Source of the DNA: a virus
Lineage: Duplodnaviria > Caudoviricetes
Reading direction: 5' to 3' (one strand)
Virus record (IMG/VR): IMGVR_UViG_3300028608_000014
Location: 1 to 62,294 of that record
DNA length: 62,294 nucleotides
The translations under genes were made by a program, and so were the position numbers. This document shows, one piece after another, positions 5,693-55,170 of the stretch (the stretch's first letter is position 1; each line of letters begins with the position of its first letter). Below the pieces are notes generated by a model. That model did not search any database. It was given only the letters and a program-made list of their open reading frames with translations, and was not told where the DNA came from.

Positions 5693-6055
5693 GCCCCCAA
5701 AAAATACAGCTCTATATGCACGGCGGGGCAATTGTTCCAGGGTAAACCTGGCGGCAGGATGTAGGACGTCCTATGTCAGTAGGCCTGGCCGGGTGAGAAG
5801 CGTTCTCAACAGCAGGCCCGGCCGGCCAGGTCCGAGAGCCCGACTCTCACTTACCGAAGTTCATGATTTTGCATGGGAAAGAACCCTAAAGAACCCAAAA
5901 CCCGGGGAAACCCGGGGAAAACTGCGGAAATCTTGATCCAATCTTGAGAAACAGGTAGTAGGGCATTGATAAACCTGAGTACCTATGGAACTCTCTAGGT
6001 ACTGGCCCTGTAAGTACAGGCCTACACACCATCTCGCAACAGGAGCACACCCCAC

Positions 6056-6421
6056 ATGGTCTTGATTAACGACGGCGCGCACTTGTCAGTCATCGAGGGG
6101 ATGAAGGACAAGGGCGAGTGCGCCGGAGGCTGCAACCACGACGCACGGTCAGGCCCCAAAGAACCCCTGTCCCCGCAAAACCCGGCAGGCACCGGCCGTT
6201 TTGATGAGGCCCTGAAGCAGCTGCAGATCGCCAAGCTGGCGCACGAGCACCGCAAACTCCGCACCGAGGCGGAGAACACGCTACGGGATCTGGACTTCAA
6301 ACTGACCCTGGAAAAGCTGACCTATGAGGCCTCGCTGGACGGTGTGCCCGTCCGGCACATCACCGCCTCCCATGACCAGGCATTCGAGGCCCTGGAGGCC
6401 GCGCAGCAAAGGATTGCCTGA
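6056..6421 (+). CDS. hypothetical protein
   Basis: ACAGGAGCAC RBS, 121 aa. Confidence 0.7.
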   Translation: MVLINDGAHLSVIEGMKDKGECAGGCNHDARSGPKEPLSPQNPAGTGRFDEALKQLQIAKLAHEHRKLRTEAENTLRDLDFKLTLEKLTYEASLDGVPVRHITASHDQAFEALEAAQQRIA

Positions 6422-6740: not shown

Positions 6741-6862
6741 GTATCAATTACTGCCTGCGCCGTCTTATTGATTATTCTGTGTACTGGTGTCACTGTTGCT
6801 TTACTGCACACAGGTAAAGAGGCAGGAGCGAAACACATACACACAGAGGGAGCAACCATCAC

Positions 6863-7516
6863 ATGAGCAGTGATATGACGGCGCTACAGACACTTCAGTT
6901 CCAGTGGAGAAATTTCGCCATTGACCGGGGCAAGGCGCGGCGCGAGGTGCAGGCCGATGTGGACATCAAGCAGGAGCAGATGAATGCCCTGCGCGAGGAG
7001 ATCCTGGCCCTGGAGCAGAACTTCGAGGAGAAGTGGAAGAACCGCAAGACCGAACTGCGCAGCGCCCTGGATGAGGCCGTGAAGGCGGAGCTGCGCAGCG
7101 GACGTTCGGCCCAGTCGGTGCTGCGCGAACTCGGCAGCCAGAACACGGTCTGGATGTACGGCCTCGCGGCCGAGGTCAAGGAGGAGGGCGGCCAGCCGGC
7201 CGCGCCCGACTTCCAGCCGGTGCCCGATGCGGAGATTGAAGGCGTCGAGTGGCTGCACCATGACCACACGGGCGTGCACCGCTGGCTGCTCTCGGCCGAC
7301 GGCAAATACATCAAGCGCTACGGTGCCGAGGGCTCGGACTTCGACGGCCAGTCCTTTGTCTGTAACCGGGACTACGCCTTTGTGGCAGGGTCCAAGCCCC
7401 TCTATGAGGCGACGGCCAAGGCCGAGATGGGCAAGCGGGTGGCCATGCTGGAGAAGCTGCTCTCGGGCACCTACGCCGGCAAGATCAAGCTCGGGGACAA
7501 CCGCTGGGTGGCCTAA
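6863..7516 (+). CDS. hypothetical protein with an N-terminal coiled coil
   Basis: 217 aa, GGGAGCA RBS, followed by a terminator. Confidence 0.85.
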   Translation: MSSDMTALQTLQFQWRNFAIDRGKARREVQADVDIKQEQMNALREEILALEQNFEEKWKNRKTELRSALDEAVKAELRSGRSAQSVLRELGSQNTVWMYGLAAEVKEEGGQPAAPDFQPVPDAEIEGVEWLHHDHTGVHRWLLSADGKYIKRYGAEGSDFDGQSFVCNRDYAFVAGSKPLYEATAKAEMGKRVAMLEKLLSGTYAGKIKLGDNRWVA

Positions 7517-7568: not shown

Positions 7569-7608
7569 GCTGCCCACAATCCTTTGCAGTAGGGCTGTGG
7601 ATTGCATC

Positions 7609-7637
7609 TTGTAGATACCCTACGTGTGTAGTATGTT
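7609..7637 (+). promoter_or_regulatory. Promoter TTGTAG-N17-TATGTT with CTAC-GTGT-GTAG operator
   Basis: Shared operator; upstream of a CTACACACCAGGAGCA RBS. Confidence 0.6.
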
Positions 7638-7674
7638 GGACGCATACACCAGCACTACACACCAGGAGCACAGC

Positions 7675-7857
7675 ATGAGCTACGATCCCCGCGACGACGA
7701 TTACGAGGCCACCCCCATCGTCCGCGAGCAGTGCGGGCATGAGGACGTGGCCGGCGGCTGGTGCCAGAACTGCGGGGACGCCATCGAGGACTGGGAGCCC
7801 TCCGATGCGCAGATCTTCGCTCAGTACGGCCAGACCATGGAGCCGAGGGCAGCATGA
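7675..7857 (+). CDS. small acidic Cys/His (zinc-ribbon-like) protein
   Basis: CGH...CQNC motif, strong RBS. Confidence 0.75.
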   Translation: MSYDPRDDDYEATPIVREQCGHEDVAGGWCQNCGDAIEDWEPSDAQIFAQYGQTMEPRAA

Positions 7858-8584: not shown

Positions 8585-8614
8585 TTGAACACTACGCGCG
8601 TAGTGTTGTACGCT
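8585..8614 (+). promoter_or_regulatory. Promoter TTGAAC-N18-TACGCT with AACACTAC-GCGC-GTAGTGTT operator
   Basis: Perfect 8-bp arms around the shared CTAC-N4-GTAG core. Confidence 0.75.
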
Positions 8615-8667
8615 CTGTGTATTGATCTGCTGTAACAGCATCAACCTACACACAGGAGCACAGCATC

Positions 8668-9042
8668 ATGAGCATTCCCACCCTCTCGGCCCGCATGCGG
8701 GTCATCGAACCGCAGGACGAAATGATCGGTTCGCTCACCACCGAGCGCGTGGCCCTCGCCGTCCGCTACGCCGGAGGCCAGGTCATCGACGGCCCCGACG
8801 ACGCCAAGCGCTGGCTGGCCTGGGCGCTGAACACCGACATCCCGTACGGGGCCTGGGACCAGCTGTCCGAGGCGTTCCAGACGGCGCACTACCTCGAAGA
8901 CGCGGATCTGGACTACTGGTACGACGTCCCCAACACGCTCGCCAACCGCGAGGCCATGCTGCGCCACGCCGAACTCATCATCGACTCCTGCGTGGAGAGC
9001 CTGTCCCGGCTGCTCTGCGCCCAGCTGGGCGTGACGGCATGA
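8668..9042 (+). CDS. hypothetical protein
   Basis: CTACACACAGGAGCAC RBS. Confidence 0.8.
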   Translation: MSIPTLSARMRVIEPQDEMIGSLTTERVALAVRYAGGQVIDGPDDAKRWLAWALNTDIPYGAWDQLSEAFQTAHYLEDADLDYWYDVPNTLANREAMLRHAELIIDSCVESLSRLLCAQLGVTA

Positions 9043-11237: not shown

Positions 11238-11267
11238 TTGACACCATGCACGTAGGGTCTGTAACGT
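11238..11267 (+). promoter_or_regulatory. Promoter TTGACA-N18-TAACGT with a degenerate operator (CCAT-GCAC-GTAGGG)
   Basis: Consensus -35; right half of the shared operator. Confidence 0.7.
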
Positions 11268-11320
11268 CTTCCTTATAAACATTGCTCTACACAGCAATCC
11301 ACACACCCTAGGAGCACACA

Positions 11321-11761
11321 ATGACCCTCGAACTCAACTTCGGACAGGTCCGCCTCGCAGACGGCACCGTCAGTGACGTTGCAAAGGAGCTGGAACTGAT
11401 GTCCGCACCTTCCGCCGCCGATATCGAACTGGAGCACCTGGCCGAAGCCGCCCTCCAGGCCGACATCGAGTTCAAGGAGGCCGAGACCAAGAAGGACAGC
11501 GCCAAGGCCGCCTTCAAGAAGGCCCTCGAAGCCCGTGGCCAGCTGGACCCGGACACCCGGAGCGTCGGCGTGGTCCGCACCATCATCAAGCGCATGCGCC
11601 GGTTCGACCCGGCCCTCGCCAAGCAGCTGCTCACGGCGGAGGAGGTCGCCAGGTACAGCGACATCAGCAGCGCGCTGGTCAAGGCCAACGTCGCCCCCAA
11701 CGTCTATGAAATGTTCCAGAAGGACGCCGGCTTCAGCCTCGAAATCAAAGTCGCTGATTAG
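11321..11761 (+). CDS. hypothetical protein
   Basis: 146 aa, AGGAGCAC RBS. Confidence 0.85.
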   Translation: MTLELNFGQVRLADGTVSDVAKELELMSAPSAADIELEHLAEAALQADIEFKEAETKKDSAKAAFKKALEARGQLDPDTRSVGVVRTIIKRMRRFDPALAKQLLTAEEVARYSDISSALVKANVAPNVYEMFQKDAGFSLEIKVAD

Positions 11762-13255: not shown

Positions 13256-14055
13256 CAGACTTTCCCCCGCTGGAGGCCGTGGAGCACATGTTCCTGAAGG
13301 CCTTCACCAAACCCTCCAGCCGGTCCCTGCAGTCCAAGCTCGGACCCTCCGAGGTGGGTGGCTGCCCGTACTGCGTCGGCTACACGATGGCCGCCAAACT
13401 CTGCAAGATGCCGCCGCGCGAGGCTGACCCGTTCGGCTACGCGGCCCACATCGGCACCATGTGCCACTACTACCTGGAGCACAAGCTGGACCTGGTGTAC
13501 GGGGCCGGCTATGAGATCGCCTCGCACCGGGAAACCAAGCTGAAGAACATCTTCGAGATACCCGGCTACGGCCCCATCGGGGGCAGCTCCGATCTGTTCG
13601 TGCCGGACTGGGGGCGCACGTTCGACTACAAGTTCCCCGGCAAATACAGCTATGACCTGGTGAAGCTGGCCATCGCCAAGGGCCTGCAGGCGCTGGCGCG
13701 CGGCGAGAAGTTCGAGAAGGCACATGCCCCGAGCATGAGGTACCGGGCGCAGCAGCAGATCTACCGCAAGGGCTGGGAGAACCTCGGCCACGAGGTTGGT
13801 AGCTCGGTTATTATTTTTCTGCCGAGACACAGTAACTCAATAAAGGATGTACTATTCTGGGAAGAGCCCAAGAACGACCGGCTCCTCGAAGACGCAATGG
13901 CGCGGACGGAGAAGATCTGGGAGTACGTCTTGGACGGCCAGCTTGACGGGCTCCCCTCGGACCCGGACTGCTACACCTGCGACACCGAGGGCCGGGGCAA
14001 CACGGCAAGCTACAACCAACTACACAGCAACCACATCAAGGAGCACGCAGCATGA
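13252..14055 (+). CDS. Cas4-family / PD-(D/E)XK exonuclease
   Basis: PSEVGGC, GTMCH, D...DYK, QxxxY and C-terminal CxxC motifs. Confidence 0.85.
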   Translation: MTDFPPLEAVEHMFLKAFTKPSSRSLQSKLGPSEVGGCPYCVGYTMAAKLCKMPPREADPFGYAAHIGTMCHYYLEHKLDLVYGAGYEIASHRETKLKNIFEIPGYGPIGGSSDLFVPDWGRTFDYKFPGKYSYDLVKLAIAKGLQALARGEKFEKAHAPSMRYRAQQQIYRKGWENLGHEVGSSVIIFLPRHSNSIKDVLFWEEPKNDRLLEDAMARTEKIWEYVLDGQLDGLPSDPDCYTCDTEGRGNTASYNQLHSNHIKEHAA

Positions 14056-21221: not shown

Positions 21222-21250
21222 TTGACACTACTTATGTAGGGCTGTAGATT
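21222..21250 (+). promoter_or_regulatory. Promoter TTGACA-N17-TAGATT with CTAC-TTAT-GTAG operator
   Basis: Consensus SigA elements plus the shared operator. Confidence 0.75.
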
Positions 21251-21299
21251 CCGTTTTACGAGCTACAGCCATACATTCACATCTACACAGGAGCGCACC

Positions 21300-21605
21300 A
21301 TGGGAAAACTGGCAGCAATCACACTCGCCGGAGCACTGCTACTGGCAGGGTGCTCGGCCCCCGAGCCTCCCATCGACAAGGATGCCGTCTATCTGAAGCT
21401 GGTCCACGAGAAGACCGGCAGCACGTCCAGCGACTCCGACCTGGTGGACATGGCCAAAGGTGCCTGCGGGCAGTTGAAGGACGGGCGCACCATGAAAGAC
21501 CTGCAAAACGATGTCGCCGCCACCGGGTTGACCCAGACCTCGAAGCTTGAACTGGCCCGGATCGTCGGGTTCGGCGTCGGTGTCTACTGCCCGGAGTTCC
21601 TGTGA
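21300..21605 (+). CDS. lipoprotein, DUF732-like
   Basis: Lipobox LAGC; D..YL...ACGQL...YCPEF. Confidence 0.8.
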   Translation: MGKLAAITLAGALLLAGCSAPEPPIDKDAVYLKLVHEKTGSTSSDSDLVDMAKGACGQLKDGRTMKDLQNDVAATGLTQTSKLELARIVGFGVGVYCPEFL

Positions 21606-40865: not shown

Positions 40866-41293
40866 CAGGGATTCATAATAAAGCGGAACGCCTGCGCCGC
40901 CGAATAACGCGCAGGGTCCGCCAATGTGGAACTCTCACCGATTCCGGCAAAGAATGCAGGACGAATTTCCCCGCAGTTTGTCGGCTCGAAGCCGAGCAGT
41001 TTCTTCAGGAGCGCCGCATTCACGGCGCGGGCGCTGGCCTTTGTGCTCGCCACGGAATGCCCGCTGAATTGCTGGAGATACCCGTCAAGTTCCGCCCCGG
41101 CAATTCCCTGGTTCCCGTTCGGGGCCTCGGTAATTCCGGTGAAATCCAACACAATGTAGGGACGGATCTGGGTGGAGCCGGGGATAAGTTTGGGCTGCCA
41201 GCCGTCGGGCACACCCCCTTCGAAGACGTCGGCTCCGGGCGTCTCCCGGGCGCGGGCCATGATCTGGTTGATGGTGGCGTTCGGGTCAATCAC
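40865..41293 (-). CDS. tail terminator
   Basis: VFEGGVP...RPYIVL; synteny. Confidence 0.7.
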   Translation of the reverse strand: MIDPNATINQIMARARETPGADVFEGGVPDGWQPKLIPGSTQIRPYIVLDFTGITEAPNGNQGIAGAELDGYLQQFSGHSVASTKASARAVNAALLKKLLGFEPTNCGEIRPAFFAGIGESSTLADPARYSAAQAFRFIMNP

Positions 41294-41706
41294 TGTGCCT
41301 TCAGTCCATTCAGGGTCAGGGTGCGGAGCATGGCGGTGTGCGCGGCCTGCAGTGCGTGCATCGGGGCGACGGTGACTGCACCCTTCGTGAAGCCCTCCTC
41401 TTGGAGCAGGAAGTAGCCTTCCTTGATGTTCAGCCAGCCCGCGCGCAGGGTGATGGTGTTGCCCCGGCGCTCGACCTTGGAGTCCAGGGACTGGTTCATC
41501 TTGAACGTCCAGTTGCGGTTTGGCTTGCCTGGGCGCAGCCCGGAGGGGGTGTTGTCGATGGTGTCGTGCGCCGCCTGCTCGCCGTCGATGGCCGCCGTCA
41601 GCGCCACGTCCTGGATGTCTTTGAGCAGGTGGTTCTCGTAGCCCCGGATCGCGCCCAGCAGCCCGTCGGTGACCTCCTTGTGGCCGATCAGCCCGGTCGC
41701 CGGCAT
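41290..41706 (-). CDS. neck / tail-completion protein (HK97 gp10-like)
   Basis: YFLLQEEG...PMHAL; synteny. Confidence 0.65.
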   Translation of the reverse strand: MPATGLIGHKEVTDGLLGAIRGYENHLLKDIQDVALTAAIDGEQAAHDTIDNTPSGLRPGKPNRNWTFKMNQSLDSKVERRGNTITLRAGWLNIKEGYFLLQEEGFTKGAVTVAPMHALQAAHTAMLRTLTLNGLKAQ

Positions 41707-42161
41707 CAGGAGCCCTGCTTGGCCGAGGTGCGGCAGACCAGGTTCATCACCCAGTCGAAGGAGGAGCCCGCGTCGCCGTGCACGTAGTAGATCTGCCCTT
41801 CCAGCGAGGGGTTGGCCGGGTTCTCCAGCACCACCACACGGTCCCCGGACTGGTAGTTCGGGGCGGTCTCGGGGGCCAGCTCGTTGTCCTCCGGCTCCAG
41901 CGGGATCTGCACCTCGATGACCTGGTTGTCGGCGGCGTCGAAGACGAAATCCCGGCGGGTCGGCCGGGCCACCTTCTCGATGGCCGCCCTGCCCTGGTAC
42001 AGCGGCAGCACGTCGCCCTCGCTCACGGTCCCGGTCTCGGGGTCGTAGACGCCCTCGGTGCCGACGCGCTCGATTCGGACCCGGGAGAGGTGCAGGGACT
42101 TCGCCGTGGCCCGGTGGTGGGTGAGGAAGCGGGGGTGGATGGCGGAGCGGCTCAGCGCCAC
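41706..42161 (-). CDS. head-to-tail stopper (DUF6093-like)
   Basis: YDPETG...LYQGRA...GDRVVV; synteny. Confidence 0.7.
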   Translation of the reverse strand: MALSRSAIHPRFLTHHRATAKSLHLSRVRIERVGTEGVYDPETGTVSEGDVLPLYQGRAAIEKVARPTRRDFVFDAADNQVIEVQIPLEPEDNELAPETAPNYQSGDRVVVLENPANPSLEGQIYYVHGDAGSSFDWVMNLVCRTSAKQGS

Positions 42162-42568
42162 AGGATCACCTCGCCCCCGCCGTACTCAAAGAGATCCCAC
42201 TGGGACACCGGGTCCTGGAAGTCCACGATCTCCACGGCAGACTCGGCGTCCAGTTCCTCGGCTTCCTGCCGGGCGCGGGCGCGCAGCGCGGCGGCGTGCA
42301 GCCGGATCGCGTTGGCCACGGACGCGCCGTCGGTCTGGACCGACTCGGAGCGCAGTTTCTTGGAGACGTAGGCCTCGTTGGTGGCCAGGACATCCAGCGC
42401 GTCGGCAGCCGCGTATTTGACGTTCGCGGCATTGATCGTCAAATAGCCGCCGATAAAACCGTCCGAGAAAATGTATTCCCCGCCGTGGTCCTGAATGGTA
42501 TCCCCGATGAGAAGGCGCACCTGCCCGACGGGTGAATTGGGGTCTGCGGGAAAAACGTCTTCGGCCAT
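42152..42568 (-). CDS. head-to-tail adaptor
   Basis: GQVRLLIGD...FSD..I...AAADAL pattern. Confidence 0.8.
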   Translation of the reverse strand: MAEDVFPADPNSPVGQVRLLIGDTIQDHGGEYIFSDGFIGGYLTINAANVKYAAADALDVLATNEAYVSKKLRSESVQTDGASVANAIRLHAAALRARARQEAEELDAESAVEIVDFQDPVSQWDLFEYGGGEVILWR

Positions 42569-42574
42569 AAAGCA

Positions 42575-42594
42575 ATTCTACCAATTGGCAATTT
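42575..42594 (-). promoter_or_regulatory. Late-type promoter AAAT-N7-TGG-TAGAAT (leaderless start)
   Basis: -10 lies 6 nt upstream of the ATG. Confidence 0.65.
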
Positions 42595-42597
42595 CAC

Positions 42598-42669
42598 AAA
42601 AACGGAGGCGGCCGACGGGGAGCAACCGTCGAACCGCCTCCGCTGCGCTACACACAACCACAGGAGCAA
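42598..42669 (-). ncRNA. Candidate anti-RBS small RNA A
   Basis: Extended -10 TGA-TAGAAT at 42674-42682; tail and loop complementary to CTACACA..AGGAGCA RBSs; terminator hairpin with U5. Confidence 0.5.
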
Positions 42670-42692
42670 GATAATTCTATCAGCCCCGGAAT

Positions 42693-42911
42693 TTAGTCAA
42701 CAAAGCCGATGTGCACCGTTTCAGTGCGGGCGTAGAGTTCGCCGTCCTTGCCCATTTCGACCACCTTGTTGGTGCCGTTGAAGATGAAATTCTCCAGTTC
42801 CACGCCGTCATAGGTGACGGTCATGGACCGCGCCCGGTTGGGGTCAATTCCAAGCTGCCGGAATGAATCCATTAGCGCCGTGCGGGAAATCAATTCAGGG
42901 GTTTTTGTCAT
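42693..42911 (-). CDS. hypothetical protein (MTKTPEL...)
   Basis: 72 aa, after the capsid terminator. Confidence 0.65.
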   Translation of the reverse strand: MTKTPELISRTALMDSFRQLGIDPNRARSMTVTYDGVELENFIFNGTNKVVEMGKDGELYARTETVHIGFVD

Positions 42912-42934
42912 TGCTCGGTCCTGTCCGGCCGCGA

Positions 42935-42969
42935 GAAAGCCCCGCCGAGATGTTCTCATCGGCGGGGCT
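42935..42969 (-). terminator. Terminator after the major capsid gene
   Basis: AGCCCCGCCGA...TCGGCGGGGCT followed by TTTC. Confidence 0.65.
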
Positions 42970-42985
42970 ATCCTCGATCAGCCTG

Positions 42986-44155
42986 TTACGGGGTGTTGAA
43001 CTGGCTCGGTGCCGCTGCCGCCTCGGTGCCCTTGGAGGCCAGGAGAGCCTGGCCGTTGAGGAACGCGCCGGAGACAACGTGCCTGATCCTGTACTCGATG
43101 GAATCGTTCAGCAGCGAGCCTTCCAGGCCCGGGACTTCCCCGCCGCCGATGTACTTGCCGGTGTCCGAGGAGATCCGCAGGTCCGGGCGTTCGTTGTTCT
43201 GCAGGAACGCCACGGCGAGGGACTTGCGGGTGCCGTCGAAGCCCTTGTCCGGCACCAGGTACCAGGTGGTGCCCGCGCTGGCGGACTGGTCGATTTCCTC
43301 CAGCCAGTCGCTGGAGGTCAGTGCGACGTCGGAGTTGGAGGTCTTGGCCTTGACCTCCGTGGTGTTGCCCGCGTTCCGGATGGTCAGTTCCTGGATGCCC
43401 AGGATGTACTCGGCCTGGTCCCGCATGGAGGTGGGGACGATGAGGCGGAACCTCGGGACGGAGACCTTGCGGCCGTTGACCCGGCGGGCGCGGATCGCCT
43501 TCTTGGCCAGCACCAGCGCGTCCAGGGACAGCTTGTATTCCTTGTTGAACAGTGTGCCGGTGGCGTTCAGGTTGCCGTTCTCGGTGCGGAACGTGGTGGC
43601 GTTGGGGCCGGTCTTGGAGACCAGGATGCCGTAGGCCTGGGTGTCCTCGGTGCGGGAGGCGTAACGGACCAGCTCGCCGGGGATCTGCGAGATGGTGTTC
43701 CACTCATCGTTGATAACCATCTCCCAGCCGAAGCCGAAGCGGGCACCTTTCTTGGAGAGCGCCACACCGGCAGCGGAGGTCGTGAACCCGAACATCGGGT
43801 ACTCGGTGCCTTCAGGGATGTTCGGCAGCGAGCCGGGCATCGTCTCTTCGCCGCCGTTTTCAGTCAGCTGGATGTCGTCATCGAACAGCAGCTCGCGCAG
43901 GAACTGCGGGCGGAAGTCGGTGAACGTCAGCCGGGTGGCGAAATCCGTCCACGTCGGGGTCAGCTGGGCATACTGCGCCTGCAGCTTCTGCGTGGTGCCG
44001 ATCTGGAATGCGGCGGCCAGGTCCGAGCTGGCGAAGGACTCGGTGATGTAGGCGGAGCCGTCCACCACCGCCTTGATGCGGCCCTGGGCGGCGCGGTCGC
44101 CTTCAAGAGCGGCACCGAAGATCTTTCCAGCTTCCTGGATGGTCTGAATACGCAT
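42986..44155 (-). CDS. major capsid protein (Mu gpT-like HK97 fold)
   Basis: SSDLA...DFRP...IPEGTEY...K.G..F..WEMVIND...LIVP...TWYL. Confidence 0.9.
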   Translation of the reverse strand: MRIQTIQEAGKIFGAALEGDRAAQGRIKAVVDGSAYITESFASSDLAAAFQIGTTQKLQAQYAQLTPTWTDFATRLTFTDFRPQFLRELLFDDDIQLTENGGEETMPGSLPNIPEGTEYPMFGFTTSAAGVALSKKGARFGFGWEMVINDEWNTISQIPGELVRYASRTEDTQAYGILVSKTGPNATTFRTENGNLNATGTLFNKEYKLSLDALVLAKKAIRARRVNGRKVSVPRFRLIVPTSMRDQAEYILGIQELTIRNAGNTTEVKAKTSNSDVALTSSDWLEEIDQSASAGTTWYLVPDKGFDGTRKSLAVAFLQNNERPDLRISSDTGKYIGGGEVPGLEGSLLNDSIEYRIRHVVSGAFLNGQALLASKGTEAAAAPSQFNTP

Positions 44156-44170
44156 TGGTGGGTGCCTTCC

Positions 44171-44590
44171 TTACGCGCCGTCAGCGACGATGCCGCCGTT
44201 GAGGATCTTGACGTTGACGGGGCCGAGCGCGGCACCCTTGGCACCGAGGGCAGCGCCGAACAGCTTGGTGCCGGCAGCTGCAGTAATCTGCAGGGAACTG
44301 TCGGAGGTCTTGATGTAGACCGGAGTGCCGTAGGCGGTGACTCCCGTGACATTCAGAATGGCCGAGCCCTTCAGGGCAGCGGAGGCAAAGCCGGGCTTGT
44401 TGCCGATGCCGCCGGAGGGCTGGGTCTGGGTCACGCCGTAGCCGACGTCGATGGTCTGCGTGGCAGAGCCTTCATCGGTCACGGTGACGGCATTCAGAAT
44501 GCCCACGCGGACAGGGGAACCGGCGCGGGTGCCCGAAGGGACCGGAAGCGAAAGGTATTCCGCTTCCTTGAAAACAAAGTTCTTAGCCAT
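44171..44590 (-). CDS. capsid decoration / cement protein (DUF2190-like)
   Basis: MAKNFV...SG..V.VG...VAVT-like N-terminus; directly upstream of the capsid gene. Confidence 0.7.
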   Translation of the reverse strand: MAKNFVFKEAEYLSLPVPSGTRAGSPVRVGILNAVTVTDEGSATQTIDVGYGVTQTQPSGGIGNKPGFASAALKGSAILNVTGVTAYGTPVYIKTSDSSLQITAAAGTKLFGAALGAKGAALGPVNVKILNGGIVADGA

Positions 44591-44636
44591 TTGCCATAAG
44601 CCTTTCAGAGGTAGGACGTCCTACATCATTAATTCA

Positions 44637-44656
44637 ATAATAGCGCATTTGCATTT
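44637..44656 (-). promoter_or_regulatory. Late-type promoter AAAT-N10-TATTAT for the capsid operon
   Basis: Same spacing as the other late promoters. Confidence 0.55.
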
Positions 44657-44779
44657 GCGCCTAAGCGGGGAATAGGGCGGGGTATTCGCCTCGGACAATT
44701 GCTCGCTGGTAAATACCCCGCCCTTGCCGCACTGCCCCGAAAGACCGCCTGCAGCGGGCGAGATATGACCACCTCCCGG

Positions 44780-45727
44780 CTAGTCCCCGTAAATGGAAGC
44801 CCCGATGCTCTTTTTGGTTTCCTGGAGGTCCGATACCTCGTGGCCGGAGAAATTCCTTCCGGCTTCTTCGAGAATCGTCTTGGAATAGTCCTTTTCGGCG
44901 GTGACGGCTTCGGCCAGATCCTTGCCGAGCTTTACGGCGTCGAGCACACGGGCCTGGCCGGCGGGCGGAAGGCCGGACTCGGCCAGCTGCTTGGCGACGT
45001 CCAGCGGGTCAACCTCGGGGGCCTTGGCGGCTTCCTCGGCCTCCTTGCGGGCGGTCTCGGCAAGGTCCGCCTTCTCCTTGTCGTCCTTGTCGGCGCGCTC
45101 CACCAGCGTGGCCACGGCGGCGGCGGTCTGCTTGCTGGACTCCACGAGAGCGTCCAGGGCTGCGGCAAGTTCCTTGGGCAGTTCCATTTGTTCCTCTTTC
45201 TTATGGGACTCTGCGTCACTCTCGGAAGCAGAAATCTTGCGCTCGGATTCGAGCAGGGTGTCGAAGCCGCCACCGGCTCCGGGGGTGGTCACCACGTCAA
45301 CGGAGTGCACGGCCGTGAACCGGGCCAGTTCCATGCCGTTGTCGCCTTCGGACATTTCGCCTTCGGCCCGGATCGACATTCCGATAACCCCGGCCTCGGC
45401 ACGTTCCTTGATAAAGTCCTGGTGCTCGGAAAAGAATGTGGCCTTGGCATAAAGGTCTTTCCCGTCGTATTCCGCGTCCTCGGAAAGGTAGCCGATAATG
45501 TCGCGCACCCGGCGTTCCGGCTGGCTCCTTTTATCCTCGGCACTCGGGTGGTTCTCGTAAATCCGGATGCCGCTTCGGAAAAGGCCCTTGCCGGACTCCA
45601 GCGCCTCTTTCGGATACCAGGCCGAGGAGCCCTGCCGGTCGCCCTCAATAATCTTGATGCGCCACGATTTCCCGGTGAGCTGGTCAGGCGCAATTCGCCC
45701 CGCCTCGACAATTTGCTGCACGGACAT
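44780..45727 (-). CDS. capsid maturation protease / scaffold fusion
   Basis: YPKEAL...NHP...IGMSIRA...SVDVVTTPGAGG, plus a helical C-terminus. Confidence 0.85.
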   Translation of the reverse strand: MSVQQIVEAGRIAPDQLTGKSWRIKIIEGDRQGSSAWYPKEALESGKGLFRSGIRIYENHPSAEDKRSQPERRVRDIIGYLSEDAEYDGKDLYAKATFFSEHQDFIKERAEAGVIGMSIRAEGEMSEGDNGMELARFTAVHSVDVVTTPGAGGGFDTLLESERKISASESDAESHKKEEQMELPKELAAALDALVESSKQTAAAVATLVERADKDDKEKADLAETARKEAEEAAKAPEVDPLDVAKQLAESGLPPAGQARVLDAVKLGKDLAEAVTAEKDYSKTILEEAGRNFSGHEVSDLQETKKSIGASIYGD

Positions 45728-51956: not shown

Positions 51957-52239
51957 CTGTCCCTCCGAGCAAATGGCCGTATTTTTCCTCCAGCAGCGGC
52001 CACAGCTCGCGCTCCACGAACTTCTGCTGGCTGATCTCCTGCAGGTCCGCCGCGGCCTTCAGCAGCTCCAGCTGGGACTTGCTCAGCCGCAGGTTGAAGC
52101 CGTGGGACTTCGGCTCGCGGTTCCGCTGCTTCCACTTGGGCTCATCGGCCTTGGTGGGCCGCTCCGGCTTCTCGGCCGCGTCCCCGAAGGCCTCGATCTC
52201 CTTCTCCATCTCGGGGGTCGGCTCCCTCATCTTCACCAT
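51949..52239 (-). CDS. ribbon-helix-helix centromere-binding protein (type Ib ParB/ParG-like)
   Basis: Disordered N-terminus; FNLRLS...LLKAAA...SQQKFV RHH pattern; coupled to parA. Confidence 0.75.
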   Translation of the reverse strand: MVKMREPTPEMEKEIEAFGDAAEKPERPTKADEPKWKQRNREPKSHGFNLRLSKSQLELLKAAADLQEISQQKFVERELWPLLEEKYGHLLGGTDG

Positions 52240-52868
52240 GACAGGGCCTCCTGCAGCAGCAGCTGGATCTCGGCTTTGGCCTTGCGATCCCGCGTTTCCA
52301 CCGCTCCCTTGCCATCACCCATCGCCTTGCGGAAGACCTTGCGGTCGTGCAGGACCGTCCTGGCCAGCACCAGATCCGGGTATTTCGTCATGTAGGTGCG
52401 GGCCTCGCCCTCCTCATCGTCCCAAACGTGCGGAGATACCCGATTCAGCACGCCCATGAGCTTCAGGTCCGGGTTGAACTTCCGTGCCTCCTTGACGGTG
52501 GCCAGCAGCGACTTCGAGGTGTCCAGATCCGGCTGGGAGGGCAGCAGCGGTGCCAGCAGCAGATCGCAGGCCGTCATCGCGGTGCGCAGTTCCTTGGAGT
52601 CCTTCCCGGCGGCGTCCACCAGCACGACGTCGTGGGCCTTGTCGAGGTTTATCAGTTTGGTGTAGAGGTTGCCGCTTACCTGTTCGGTCTTGATGGGCGC
52701 TCCGCCGGCCTCCACGCGGTCGGCGGCCCAGATGCTGGTCGTGTGCACGGTCGGGTCCGCCTCCACGATGCAGACTTTTCGGCCCCGGCGCTGCAGCTCG
52801 GCGGCGAGGTTGACGGTGATGGTGCTCTTGCCGACGCCGCCCTTGTGGTGGCCGATGAGGATCAGCAC
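52233..52868 (-). CDS. parA: ParA family partition ATPase (short, type Ib)
   Basis: KGGVGKST deviant Walker A, VEADP, VLVDAAG, P..PSQPDL. Confidence 0.93.
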   Translation of the reverse strand: MLILIGHHKGGVGKSTITVNLAAELQRRGRKVCIVEADPTVHTTSIWAADRVEAGGAPIKTEQVSGNLYTKLINLDKAHDVVLVDAAGKDSKELRTAMTACDLLLAPLLPSQPDLDTSKSLLATVKEARKFNPDLKLMGVLNRVSPHVWDDEEGEARTYMTKYPDLVLARTVLHDRKVFRKAMGDGKGAVETRDRKAKAEIQLLLQEALSW

Positions 52869-52870
52869 GG

Positions 52871-53083
52871 CTACTCCCCCGCTTCCGTCGCGGCGCGGTG
52901 CTGCGTCAGGGCATCGAACATGGCGATGAAGTCTGAGGCCCTGGACATGGCCACGGGCCTGGACGGGCCGTAGTCGTCCCAGTGCTCAATGACAAATTCG
53001 AGGTCAACGGCGTCATCGCTGGCGACCAGGGCCTGCGCGACGGCGGTGCGCTCATCGCGGGCATGGTTCGGTTGTGCTCCCAT
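52871..53083 (-). CDS. hypothetical protein, first gene of the par operon
   Basis: CTACACAACCACTAGGGGAGCA RBS. Confidence 0.65.
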   Translation of the reverse strand: MGAQPNHARDERTAVAQALVASDDAVDLEFVIEHWDDYGPSRPVAMSRASDFIAMFDALTQHRAATEAGE

Positions 53084-53110
53084 TTTGCTCCCCTAGTGGT
53101 TGTGTAGTGC

Positions 53111-53340: not shown

Positions 53341-53366
53341 TGCCCGTCCGCCGGGCCGCAGGGCAC

Positions 53367-53434
53367 AAAAAAAAAAATCCCCTCCCAGGAGCACCAGGAG
53401 GGGATTTTCGCTGCAACAGCTCTACACAGGAGCC
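53367..53434 (-). ncRNA. Candidate anti-RBS small RNA B / terminator
   Basis: 12-bp stem with UGGUGCUCCUG loop, U11 tail, 5' GCUCCUGUGUAG. Confidence 0.5.
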
Positions 53435-54855: not shown

Positions 54856-55097
54856 TGCAGGCCCAGCCGTTCATTGACCTGCTTCAGCATCGACTCCGCC
54901 CTTTCAGGCAGGAGGCCATAGGTCACCTCACCGTGTGTGACGTCTCCCGAGGTGTAGAGGGCGATCAGGCTGGCGGTGCGCTGCTCGTAGGCGAGGGCGA
55001 GCGTGGCCTGCGCCTGGGCGTAGGAGGCGGCGTCGATTTCCTGGTAGGTGGCCTCATCGAAGTGCGGATTGCCGGGCAGGGATTGCTGCTGGTTCAT
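54852..55097 (-). CDS. hypothetical protein
   Basis: CTACACACTTCAAGGAGCAC RBS. Confidence 0.75.
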   Translation of the reverse strand: MNQQQSLPGNPHFDEATYQEIDAASYAQAQATLALAYEQRTASLIALYTSGDVTHGEVTYGLLPERAESMLKQVNERLGLQ

Positions 55098-55170
55098 TGG
55101 GTGCTCCTTGAAGTGTGTAGGTCTGTAAGAACAGACTACACATCCATCGATTACAAGGCCACCCTTGGGG

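Follow-up and report, generated by a model that had tools for sequence, protein, structure and literature searches.

Why would a phage carry a copy of a ribosome-binding-site (RBS) motif in the middle of its structural genes, on the strand opposite to them and with no gene of its own to start? The question is raised by the IMG/VR record IMGVR_UViG_3300028608_000014, the complete genome of a soil phage (62,294 bp, 64% G+C; hereafter the window), where the motif belongs to a compact unit that follows the major capsid gene. Here we describe the anatomy of this unit, its conservation and covariation in relatives and its complementarity to Shine-Dalgarno (SD) leaders. We propose, with about even confidence, that the locus encodes a trans-acting anti-SD small RNA (sRNA) by which the RBS of non-structural genes would be masked; that the RNA is made, when it is made, and that it pairs in vivo and represses, we infer from these features.

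A sequence-only reading of this DNA had placed the 22-mer CTACACACAACCACAGGAGCAA at 42648-42669 on the + strand, opposite to the minus-strand neighbour genes, and we confirm these coordinates. Allowing up to 3 mismatches, we found no further copy of the 22-mer in the genome, nor any in 100 shuffles. As that reading held, no start codon follows it: ATG, GTG and TTG are absent 3-14 nt past its GGAG, where only ATA, ATT and ATC occur. Read on the minus strand from 42682 to 42598, the locus presents a -10 element, a 5' stretch, a stem with the loop UUGCUCC and the run UUUUU, in the order first described; on the + strand the loop is GGAGCAA at 42619-42625. The hairpin (42643-42603) leads into UUUUU in the manner of an intrinsic (Rho-independent) terminator, and does so likewise in 10 of 10 relatives. 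With a predicted +1 at 42667, the unit would be a minus-strand sRNA gene, about 70 nt long and running from 42667 to about 42598, with its own -10-only promoter and an intrinsic terminator, set between head and head-tail genes. UGCUCC, the complement of GGAGCA, is present twice in this RNA, at the predicted 5' end and in the hairpin loop. The hexamer TAGAAT has three copies in the whole genome, two of them in the RNA locus. The 124-nt spacer at 42569-42692 folds at -51.4 kcal/mol (z = -4.6), a value equalled by 0 of 200 shuffles.

Is such a unit maintained in other phages? Sixteen IMG/VR loci encode capsids 66-94% identical to that of the window, and in 12 of them, representing 10 distinct sequences, the unit lies between the capsid gene and a homologue of the 138-aa gene that comes next in the window. 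Other searches added two further carriers, L102 and L149, the latter a contig of an uncultured Arthrobacter metagenome-assembled genome (MAG), which brings the distinct relatives with the unit at the same site to 12. Loci L004, L011, L013 and L016 end too early for its presence to be judged. The closest capsid relative, L001, has no match to the RNA model R1 within its 2.0 kb of downstream sequence. At the -10 place, 12 of 12 relatives have a TAnnnT hexamer, with G at +7 in 10 and at +8 in 2.

All 10 relatives that were folded form a long hairpin with the 7-nt loop (U/C)UGCUCC on stems of differing sequence. In an alignment of 10 sequences that was fitted to the structure by the model, and is hence biased towards it, 14 of 18 stem pairs are changed on both sides and 85.6% of cells are paired, which 0 of 500 shuffles reach; slid registers fall to 39-58% paired. 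The loop TGCTCC is invariant (10/10) in alignment A3, whose conserved 5' blocks read cT-CCT..GGT..GTGT-GGT. A conserved unpaired seed next to covarying stems, a generic mark of trans-acting base-pairing sRNAs, is present at the locus. Stem pairing is nearly equal for the sense and the antisense strand (154 vs 148 of 180 cells), so that the strand assignment of the RNA rests on the U-run and the promoter. Finally, a contig of about 90% identity from another soil sample (run X5) has 35 listed substitutions in 42400-42827 and none in 42588-42687. The 35 fall in 328 flanking bases, and by our arithmetic the chance of zero at the flank rate is about 1e-5.

Judged by these sequence comparisons, the RNA unit is a real, selected element. 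A discrete minus-strand RNA gene of about 70 nt, as the earlier reading had predicted, is backed by the 12 relatives, the compensatory stems, the invariant loop, the conserved -10 and the lack of listed change in the contig of about 90% identity. The same evidence makes it very unlikely that the locus is an ordinary terminator beside a chance or relic inverted copy of a leader, without function. For such a relic it can be said that GGAGCAA shows no genome-wide enrichment (6 copies vs 9.05 expected) and that any CU-rich sequence pairs with SD regions. It is nevertheless hard to reconcile with conservation in 12 relatives, with covariation and zero listed substitutions over 100 nt, with a 22-mer that finds no second match in the genome or in shuffles, and with the analogous units in distant phages described below.

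Model R1 finds one copy per genome and had no match among 150 further genomes from the family to which the L149 MAG belongs. A loose IMG/VR pattern, TGCTCCCC-N25-55-GGTARAMT, returned at least 120 stretches, of which 80 were listed as loci; among these 80, two matched R1, one of them an already known contig. Megablast of 41000-45000 against phage records gave no match, and searching for relatives by the 737-aa primase gave one short locus only. We observed a weak second R1 match (17 bits, E = 0.07) at L002:8384-8484 (+), in a stretch that also carries CTACACA. The 62,151-bp relative G001 (L011/L012) has two slightly different capsid copies at its ends, that is, a near-identical, inexact terminal redundancy of about 1.8 kb.

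Two explanations of the motif by coding sequence were considered and rejected. A + strand micro-ORF (open reading frame, ORF) has no ATG or GTG in the 10 aligned relatives, two of which have TTG, and its open frames vary between 2 and 48 codons in length; there is thus no conserved micro-ORF. A 3' untranslated region folding back onto the RBS of the small ORF at this locus was rejected because that ORF is absent from most relatives.

With what could the exposed bases pair? Among start-associated GGAGNN hexamers, GGAGCA ranks first in the window (22/125), in the complete relative G001 (21/122) and in G006 (7/46). At starts its fraction is twice as high as on average, and a CA-rich tract usually precedes it. 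CTACACA is observed 13 times in the window vs 2.97 expected, which 0 of 100 shuffles reach, and 9 of the 13 copies are followed, 8-35 nt further on, by a same-strand SD and ATG. For target prediction the whole 70-nt RNA was cofolded with the leaders in a structure-aware manner. The eight best targets, with free-energy changes (ddG) of -19 to -27 kcal/mol, are all non-structural or early genes, and the ddG is -11.9 for early (n = 40) vs -8.7 for late leaders (n = 33; p = 0.027). The leaders named in the sequence-only reading (7675, 8668, 6863, 21300 and, before the par operon, 53083) match what it had read there.

In the window 0 of 60 5'-shuffled RNAs were as good as the native one, and when RNAs were shuffled in the same way and tested against their own genomes, as good a result was obtained by 0 of 40 shuffles in the window, 0 of 40 in G006, 1 of 40 in G002 and 3 of 40 in G001. 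Complementarity to translation initiation regions (TIRs) beyond chance, as is generically expected of an sRNA, was thus found in four of five genomes, with at most 3 of 40 shuffles as good. The RNA of G006, which has nearly the same 5' end, shows a 14-nt perfect match at the TIR of that genome's first early gene.

According to the reading we prefer, UGCUCC would be exposed at the very 5' end of the RNA, followed by a GU-rich tract, and again in the terminator loop. GGAGCA would be an extended SD favoured by this phage group, mainly where replication or other non-structural genes have CA-rich leaders. The RNA would pair in trans with such leaders, cover the SD and block binding of the 30S subunit, and translation of early genes would be lowered as a result. 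Head and tail genes would be spared, having other SD flavours or no leader.

Several results weigh against so finely tuned a regulator. No RNA run is among the 24 listed holders of 41500-44500, all 24 being DNA metagenomes. A 5x5 matrix of sRNAs against leaders showed no diagonal dominance, and leaders of other phages pair about as well as a phage's own. Of the covariation between sRNA and RBS motifs that the earlier reading had looked to among relatives, no phage-specific form appeared in this test, and any co-evolution would therefore be at group level only. Indeed, the complementarity is a shared group-level trait, of CU and GU blocks against GGAGCA and the CA tract, and not a phage-by-phage lock. 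The L007/L010/L012-type 5' motif finds its exact complement, in the contigs of 5 relatives, nowhere but in the sRNA gene. With RNAduplex, the native RNA of G001 did not surpass 33% of shuffles, and in the own-genome shuffle test of G005 12 of 40 were as good.

The earlier claims about the targets stand in part. That the RNA is antisense to the phage's own RBSs agrees in silico with the two UGCUCC copies, the top rank of GGAGCA, the early leaders among the best targets and the poorer shuffles; the CTACACA portion of the claim fits less well, as its complement is present in only 2 of 12 RNAs (those of the window and L009). As to the proposed shut-off of a whole gene class, the early bias of GGAGCA in the window is modest (11/40 early vs 2/33 late, p = 0.029; counted on crude gene calls of ours, from which 5 rows were removed and to which 3 were added manually), and in the relative G001 it is not significant (9/39 vs 3/28, p = 0.33). 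The promoters of the units resemble ordinary housekeeping -10-only elements, which makes the 'late' timing a guess. The match between loops and SD flavours across phages, to which we come below, rests on two flavours only. A last point against a trans-acting RNA is that strict synteny over distant phages is easier to explain by a role in cis.

The locus is surrounded by minus-strand genes for the terminase, portal, protease, decoration protein and major capsid protein, then the small ORF, the 138-aa gene and tail genes (Table 1). The window capsid and the major capsid proteins annotated in Arthrobacter phages share 45-47% identity. An equivalent of the first terminator-like hairpin was found after the capsid gene in all relatives read. 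For the small ORF, the ATG at 42911, past this hairpin, is the more likely start by our inference. The ORF gave no tblastn match in 16 relatives, but when called genes were compared by blastp, a weak homologue (30% over 56 aa, E = 2e-5) turned up in G006, the relative with locus L005. Homologues of the 138-aa gene come after the RNA unit in relatives too. In the window this gene has no SD, so its mRNA is probably leaderless. The element GGTAGAAT before it is kept in most relatives, and L102 instead has an SD-bearing leader. Amigovirus, CN1A, Musetta and ISF9 likewise have GGTAGAAT or GGTAGACT shortly ahead of the ATG.

Table 1 Features of the small-RNA locus and predicted target leaders in the window (ddG in kcal/mol)
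Feature	Coordinates	Strand	Remarks
Major capsid protein gene, upstream neighbour of the RNA unit	42986..44155	-	PHROG head families, E = 5e-44
First terminator-like hairpin, directly 3' of the capsid stop codon	42927..42983	-	fold -41.6 kcal/mol, z = -4.7, 0/200 shuffles as good
Small ORF, 88 aa as listed	42693..42959	-	G+C at third codon positions (GC3) 0.69, below its neighbours
Extended -10 TGATAGAAT of the putative small RNA	42674..42682	-	six bases separate TGATAGAAT from GCUCCUGUGGUUGUGUGUAGCGCA
24-nt 5' part GCUCCUGUGGUUGUGUGUAGCGCA, predicted unpaired	42644..42667	-	first UGCUCC-type anti-SD, then GU-rich tract; complement of the 22-mer
Two-tier GC-rich terminator hairpin	42603..42643	-	7-nt loop UUGCUCC (42625-42619), the second anti-SD
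U-run UUUUU, predicted RNA 3' end	42598..42602	-	
Second TAGAAT	42575..42580	-	about 17 bases past the U-run, six bases before the ATG at 42568
Downstream 138-aa gene	42152..42568	-	phrog_18316, of unknown function; the gene next to the head genes on their 3' side
Best predicted target leader, Sak4-like annealing protein gene	14020..14054	+	ddG -26.7
Predicted target leader, GGGAGCAACC before ATG 6863	6840..6865	+	ddG -23.5; GGAGCAA at 6849
Predicted target leader, DUF732 gene (Pfam)	21283..21302	+	ddG -23.1
Predicted target leader, first rightward early ORF	6022..6058	+	ddG -22.3
Predicted target leader upstream of the ParA-like operon, CTACACAACCACTAGGGGAGCAAAATG	53081..53107	-	ddG -22.2; 10-nt exact match ACACAACCAC
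Predicted target leader	11287..11323	+	ddG -21.2
Predicted target leader	7655..7677	+	ddG -21.1
Predicted target leader	55095..55120	-	ddG -19.4
Predicted target leader, CTACACACAGGAGCAC	8646..8670	+	ddG -17.2; 10-nt exact match CACAGGAGCA

The main rival, which we think rather unlikely, takes the unit for a cis-acting cassette at the head/tail junction. A second, insulating terminator would keep strong capsid transcription off the leaderless next gene with its own TAGAAT promoter, and the loop and 5' stretch would form a protein site (e.g. for an antiterminator) or tune termination, with no targets in trans. This is in accordance with the capsid/head-tail position, strictly conserved in at least six phage lineages, and with the -10 close to an ATG that always follows the unit within about 25-50 nt. 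A hairpin with a U-run is a canonical terminator, and a cassette of this kind needs no phage-specific co-variation with leaders, of which we saw none. However, a separate strong terminator already stands 40-300 nt upstream, after the capsid gene, and the unit has a conserved -10 of its own. Nor does a terminator need an invariant loop or a conserved 5' stretch; among 17 other terminator-like hairpins scanned in the window the motif occurs in 1, there partly in the stem. Finally, the loop flavour tracks the SD flavour of the phage.

This last point comes from units of similar build in other phages. Their common order is capsid gene, terminator, a -10 such as TGCTAAGCT, a structured RNA whose anti-SD loops are C/U-rich, terminator, and a -10 near the next ATG. 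The terminal 7-nt loop is UUCCUCC in Anansi and Molivia (Arthrobacter; Amigovirus); CN1A (Clavibacter) has the loop UUUCCUCCUUCU, Musetta and ISF9 (Microbacterium) an apical CUCUCCUCCUC..., and Jojan60 (Stenotrophomonas) the loop UUUCCUCCUUUC plus CUCCUCCC. Model R1 was unmatched in the Amigovirus, Jojan60, Yappy, JustBecause and Anaya loci. Since it fails to detect the units of other genera, we regard these as analogues by anatomy and not as demonstrated homologues. The Yappy and JustBecause spacers contain no clear unit, and Montesquieu has no spacer at this position. The top start-associated hexamer of Anansi and Jojan60 is GGAGGA, not GGAGCA, and among the annotated genes of Anansi's first 50 kb it marks 12 of 28 early vs 3 of 29 late ones (p = 0.007). 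Together with the CCUCC-type loops of these two phages, this suggests that loop flavour follows SD flavour, for the two flavours at hand.

Such unannotated structured RNAs with CCUCC-type loops, placed between the major capsid gene and its next neighbour in cultured phages of Arthrobacter, Stenotrophomonas, Clavibacter and Microbacterium, are at L022:3620-3882, L023:3617-3852, L147:2560-2790, L159:2205-2470, L160:2196-2405 and L161:2545-2695; a -10 element near the ATG comes after each. Jojan60 (ON045087), recorded on Stenotrophomonas, has WhiB, PNK, RNA ligase and MazG in the order of the Arthrobacter Amigovirus phages; its host assignment or history may be worth a look.

The CCUCC loops also admit an explanation that we hold to be improbable, namely a general anti-SD RNA whose targets would lie mainly in the host, or a decoy. 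As an abundant RNA with 16S-like CCUCC/UGCUCC motifs, it would mask host SDs in favour of leaderless or atypical late mRNAs, or titrate a protein that recognises the 3' end of 16S rRNA. Canonical CCUCC repeats, not phage-specific motifs, are found in 5 of 6 lineages, the downstream gene is leaderless or nearly so in most of them, and the sRNAs pair equally well with the leaders of other phages. In the window group, however, the motif UGCUCC complements the phage-preferred GGAGCA, which presumably extends no pairing with the 16S 3' end, and no protein partner is indicated in this analysis.

Returning to an RNA directed at phage leaders, a wider but doubtful generalization is that many actinobacterial siphophages run a 'private Shine-Dalgarno code', in which the RBS of non-structural genes would be extended or over-conserved and a post-capsid sRNA would mimic the anti-SD with a matching extension and switch off a temporal class of genes at translation. 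The RBS forms of such a code would perhaps be GGAGCA with a CA tract here, GGAGGA in Amigovirus, and the start-associated sequences (SAS) of Cluster K and Cluster EF phages.

In its passages on SAS, the Cluster K mycobacteriophage study describes them as over-conserved, at the RBS position of non-structural genes, in one orientation and of unknown function, and considers a phage-encoded RNA or protein partner possible (Pope 2011, PMC3203893). The same passages report that K1 phages have a single reverse-oriented copy that is not at a gene start (Pope 2011, PMC3203893), which parallels the orphan RBS-motif copy of the window. The account of SAS in Cluster EF Microbacterium phages still calls their role unclear (Jacobs-Sera 2020, PMC7302621). 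The Cluster K SAS is a fixed, asymmetric 13-mer 3-7 bp from the start, whereas the leaders of the window share only GGAGCA(C/A) and a CA-rich tract, with CTACACA in 9 and at variable distance. With this variable spacing, and a full 22-mer that is unique, the window has no SAS of the Cluster K type.

The K1 copy itself deserves description. In Anaya (JF704106 59689-60064; L148:48690-49065) the reverse SAS lies inside a 385-nt non-coding gap between gp96 and gp97. The gap is conserved in 182 Cluster K records, with an invariant, -10-like CGCTTTTAGACT and a co-varying hairpin (alignment A4). Its sense RNA would show GGCCUCCUAUCCC, 12/13 complementary to the SAS and predicted to be unpaired, and the orphan anti-SAS is 12/13 complementary in both Anaya and Adephagia. 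In Amgine, Krueger, Unicorn and Shandong1 this spot reads CUCCCUUCCC or a variant of it, and the SAS is unchanged. No terminator was seen after the anti-SAS stretch in the gap. The gp96-gp97 gap may be a second case of an RNA directed against start sequences.

How does the locus compare with described RNAs? C4 of phages P1/P7 and sar of P22 are antisense or immunity RNAs that cover RBSs; they act on one operon (ant), and sar is cis-antisense. Like them, the RNA of the window would expose bases complementary to the RBS of the phage's own genes and would repress the initiation of translation. Unlike them, it lies 10-35 kb from its predicted targets, which are many, and in the structural-gene cluster instead of an immunity region. 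RsaE/RoxS-type C-rich sRNAs use anti-SD-like loops for translational repression of multiple targets, and the lambda pR'-tR' 6S RNA, HK022 put RNA and phi29 pRNA are short structured phage transcripts beside late or head genes; of their features, neither Q or qut elements nor put-like double hairpins nor a pRNA fold was seen at the locus, though no search aimed at them was made. CcsR RNAs (RF02791) have a CCUCCUCCC motif and anti-SD-like C/U-rich loops and differ in being host stress regulators, not phage genes; with 12.3 bits for the CcsR1 model vs a gathering score of 65.3, the window RNA is not a member.

The 6C sRNA of Actinobacteria, which are high-GC Gram-positive bacteria, is reported to use C-rich hairpin loops for chaperone-independent binding of multiple mRNAs (Mai et al. 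2019, PMC6486639). 6C is chromosomal and has two hairpins with poly-C loops, as opposed to the UUGCUCC or CCUCC loops of the window and the analogues, and 6C (RF01066) was absent among Rfam matches up to E = 10. An Rfam scan gave 0 matches in the window, C4 included, and 0 in 8 related or analogous loci; the best weak match of the unit scored 19.3 bits vs a threshold of 84. Full-text literature searches found no description of such a phage RNA, and PMC9262239 held nothing relevant to one. Overall, RBS-covering phage RNAs and C-rich-loop sRNAs are the closest kinds, and the locus belongs to none of them.

The host is probably an actinobacterium, as indicated by the DUF732 gene, the contig from the Arthrobacter MAG and the relatives among Arthrobacter phages. 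The DUF732 family, typical of mycolic-acid actinobacteria, is represented at 21300-21605 (+), and a ParA/MinD-type ATPase gene at 52233-52868 (-) suggests plasmid-like maintenance. Regulatory RNAs of Actinobacteria-infecting phages are almost unknown, and the locus offers a concrete, testable candidate partner for over-conserved start-associated sequences. Since cultured phages of Arthrobacter (Amigo/Anansi/Molivia), of Clavibacter (CN1A) and of Microbacterium (ISF9, Musetta) have analogues of it, the proposal is testable at the bench now. If it is true, start-associated sequences would gain their long-missing partner, a new and widespread family of phage regulatory RNAs would be recognised and an RNA-based temporal switch would be added to phage biology. 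As a tool, it would also allow translation to be tuned in high-GC Gram-positive hosts, which are not known to have Hfq.

Some additional elements were noted in the window. A bidirectional terminator at 53365-53430 has the minus-strand apex GGUGCUCCUGG, the complement of CAGGAGCACC, partly inside the stem, and is adjoined at 53422 (+) by an orphan CTACACAGGAGCC that no ORF follows. There may be a second anti-SD element here, upstream of the ParA operon. At 7600-7650, 8590-8640, 11240-11280 and 21225-21260 we found TTGACA-N17-TAGATT early promoters with CTAC-N4-GTAG palindromes between or beside the hexamers. These palindromes are probably repressor operators, and CTAC also begins the leader motif CTACACA. 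Before five minus-strand genes stands a second start-associated sequence that is repeated, ACGGAAGGC(C/T)..GGA(A)CA-ATG; these genes start at 1320, 1685, 2281, 5596 and 61389 and lie in the low-GC3 left arm and at the genome's right end.

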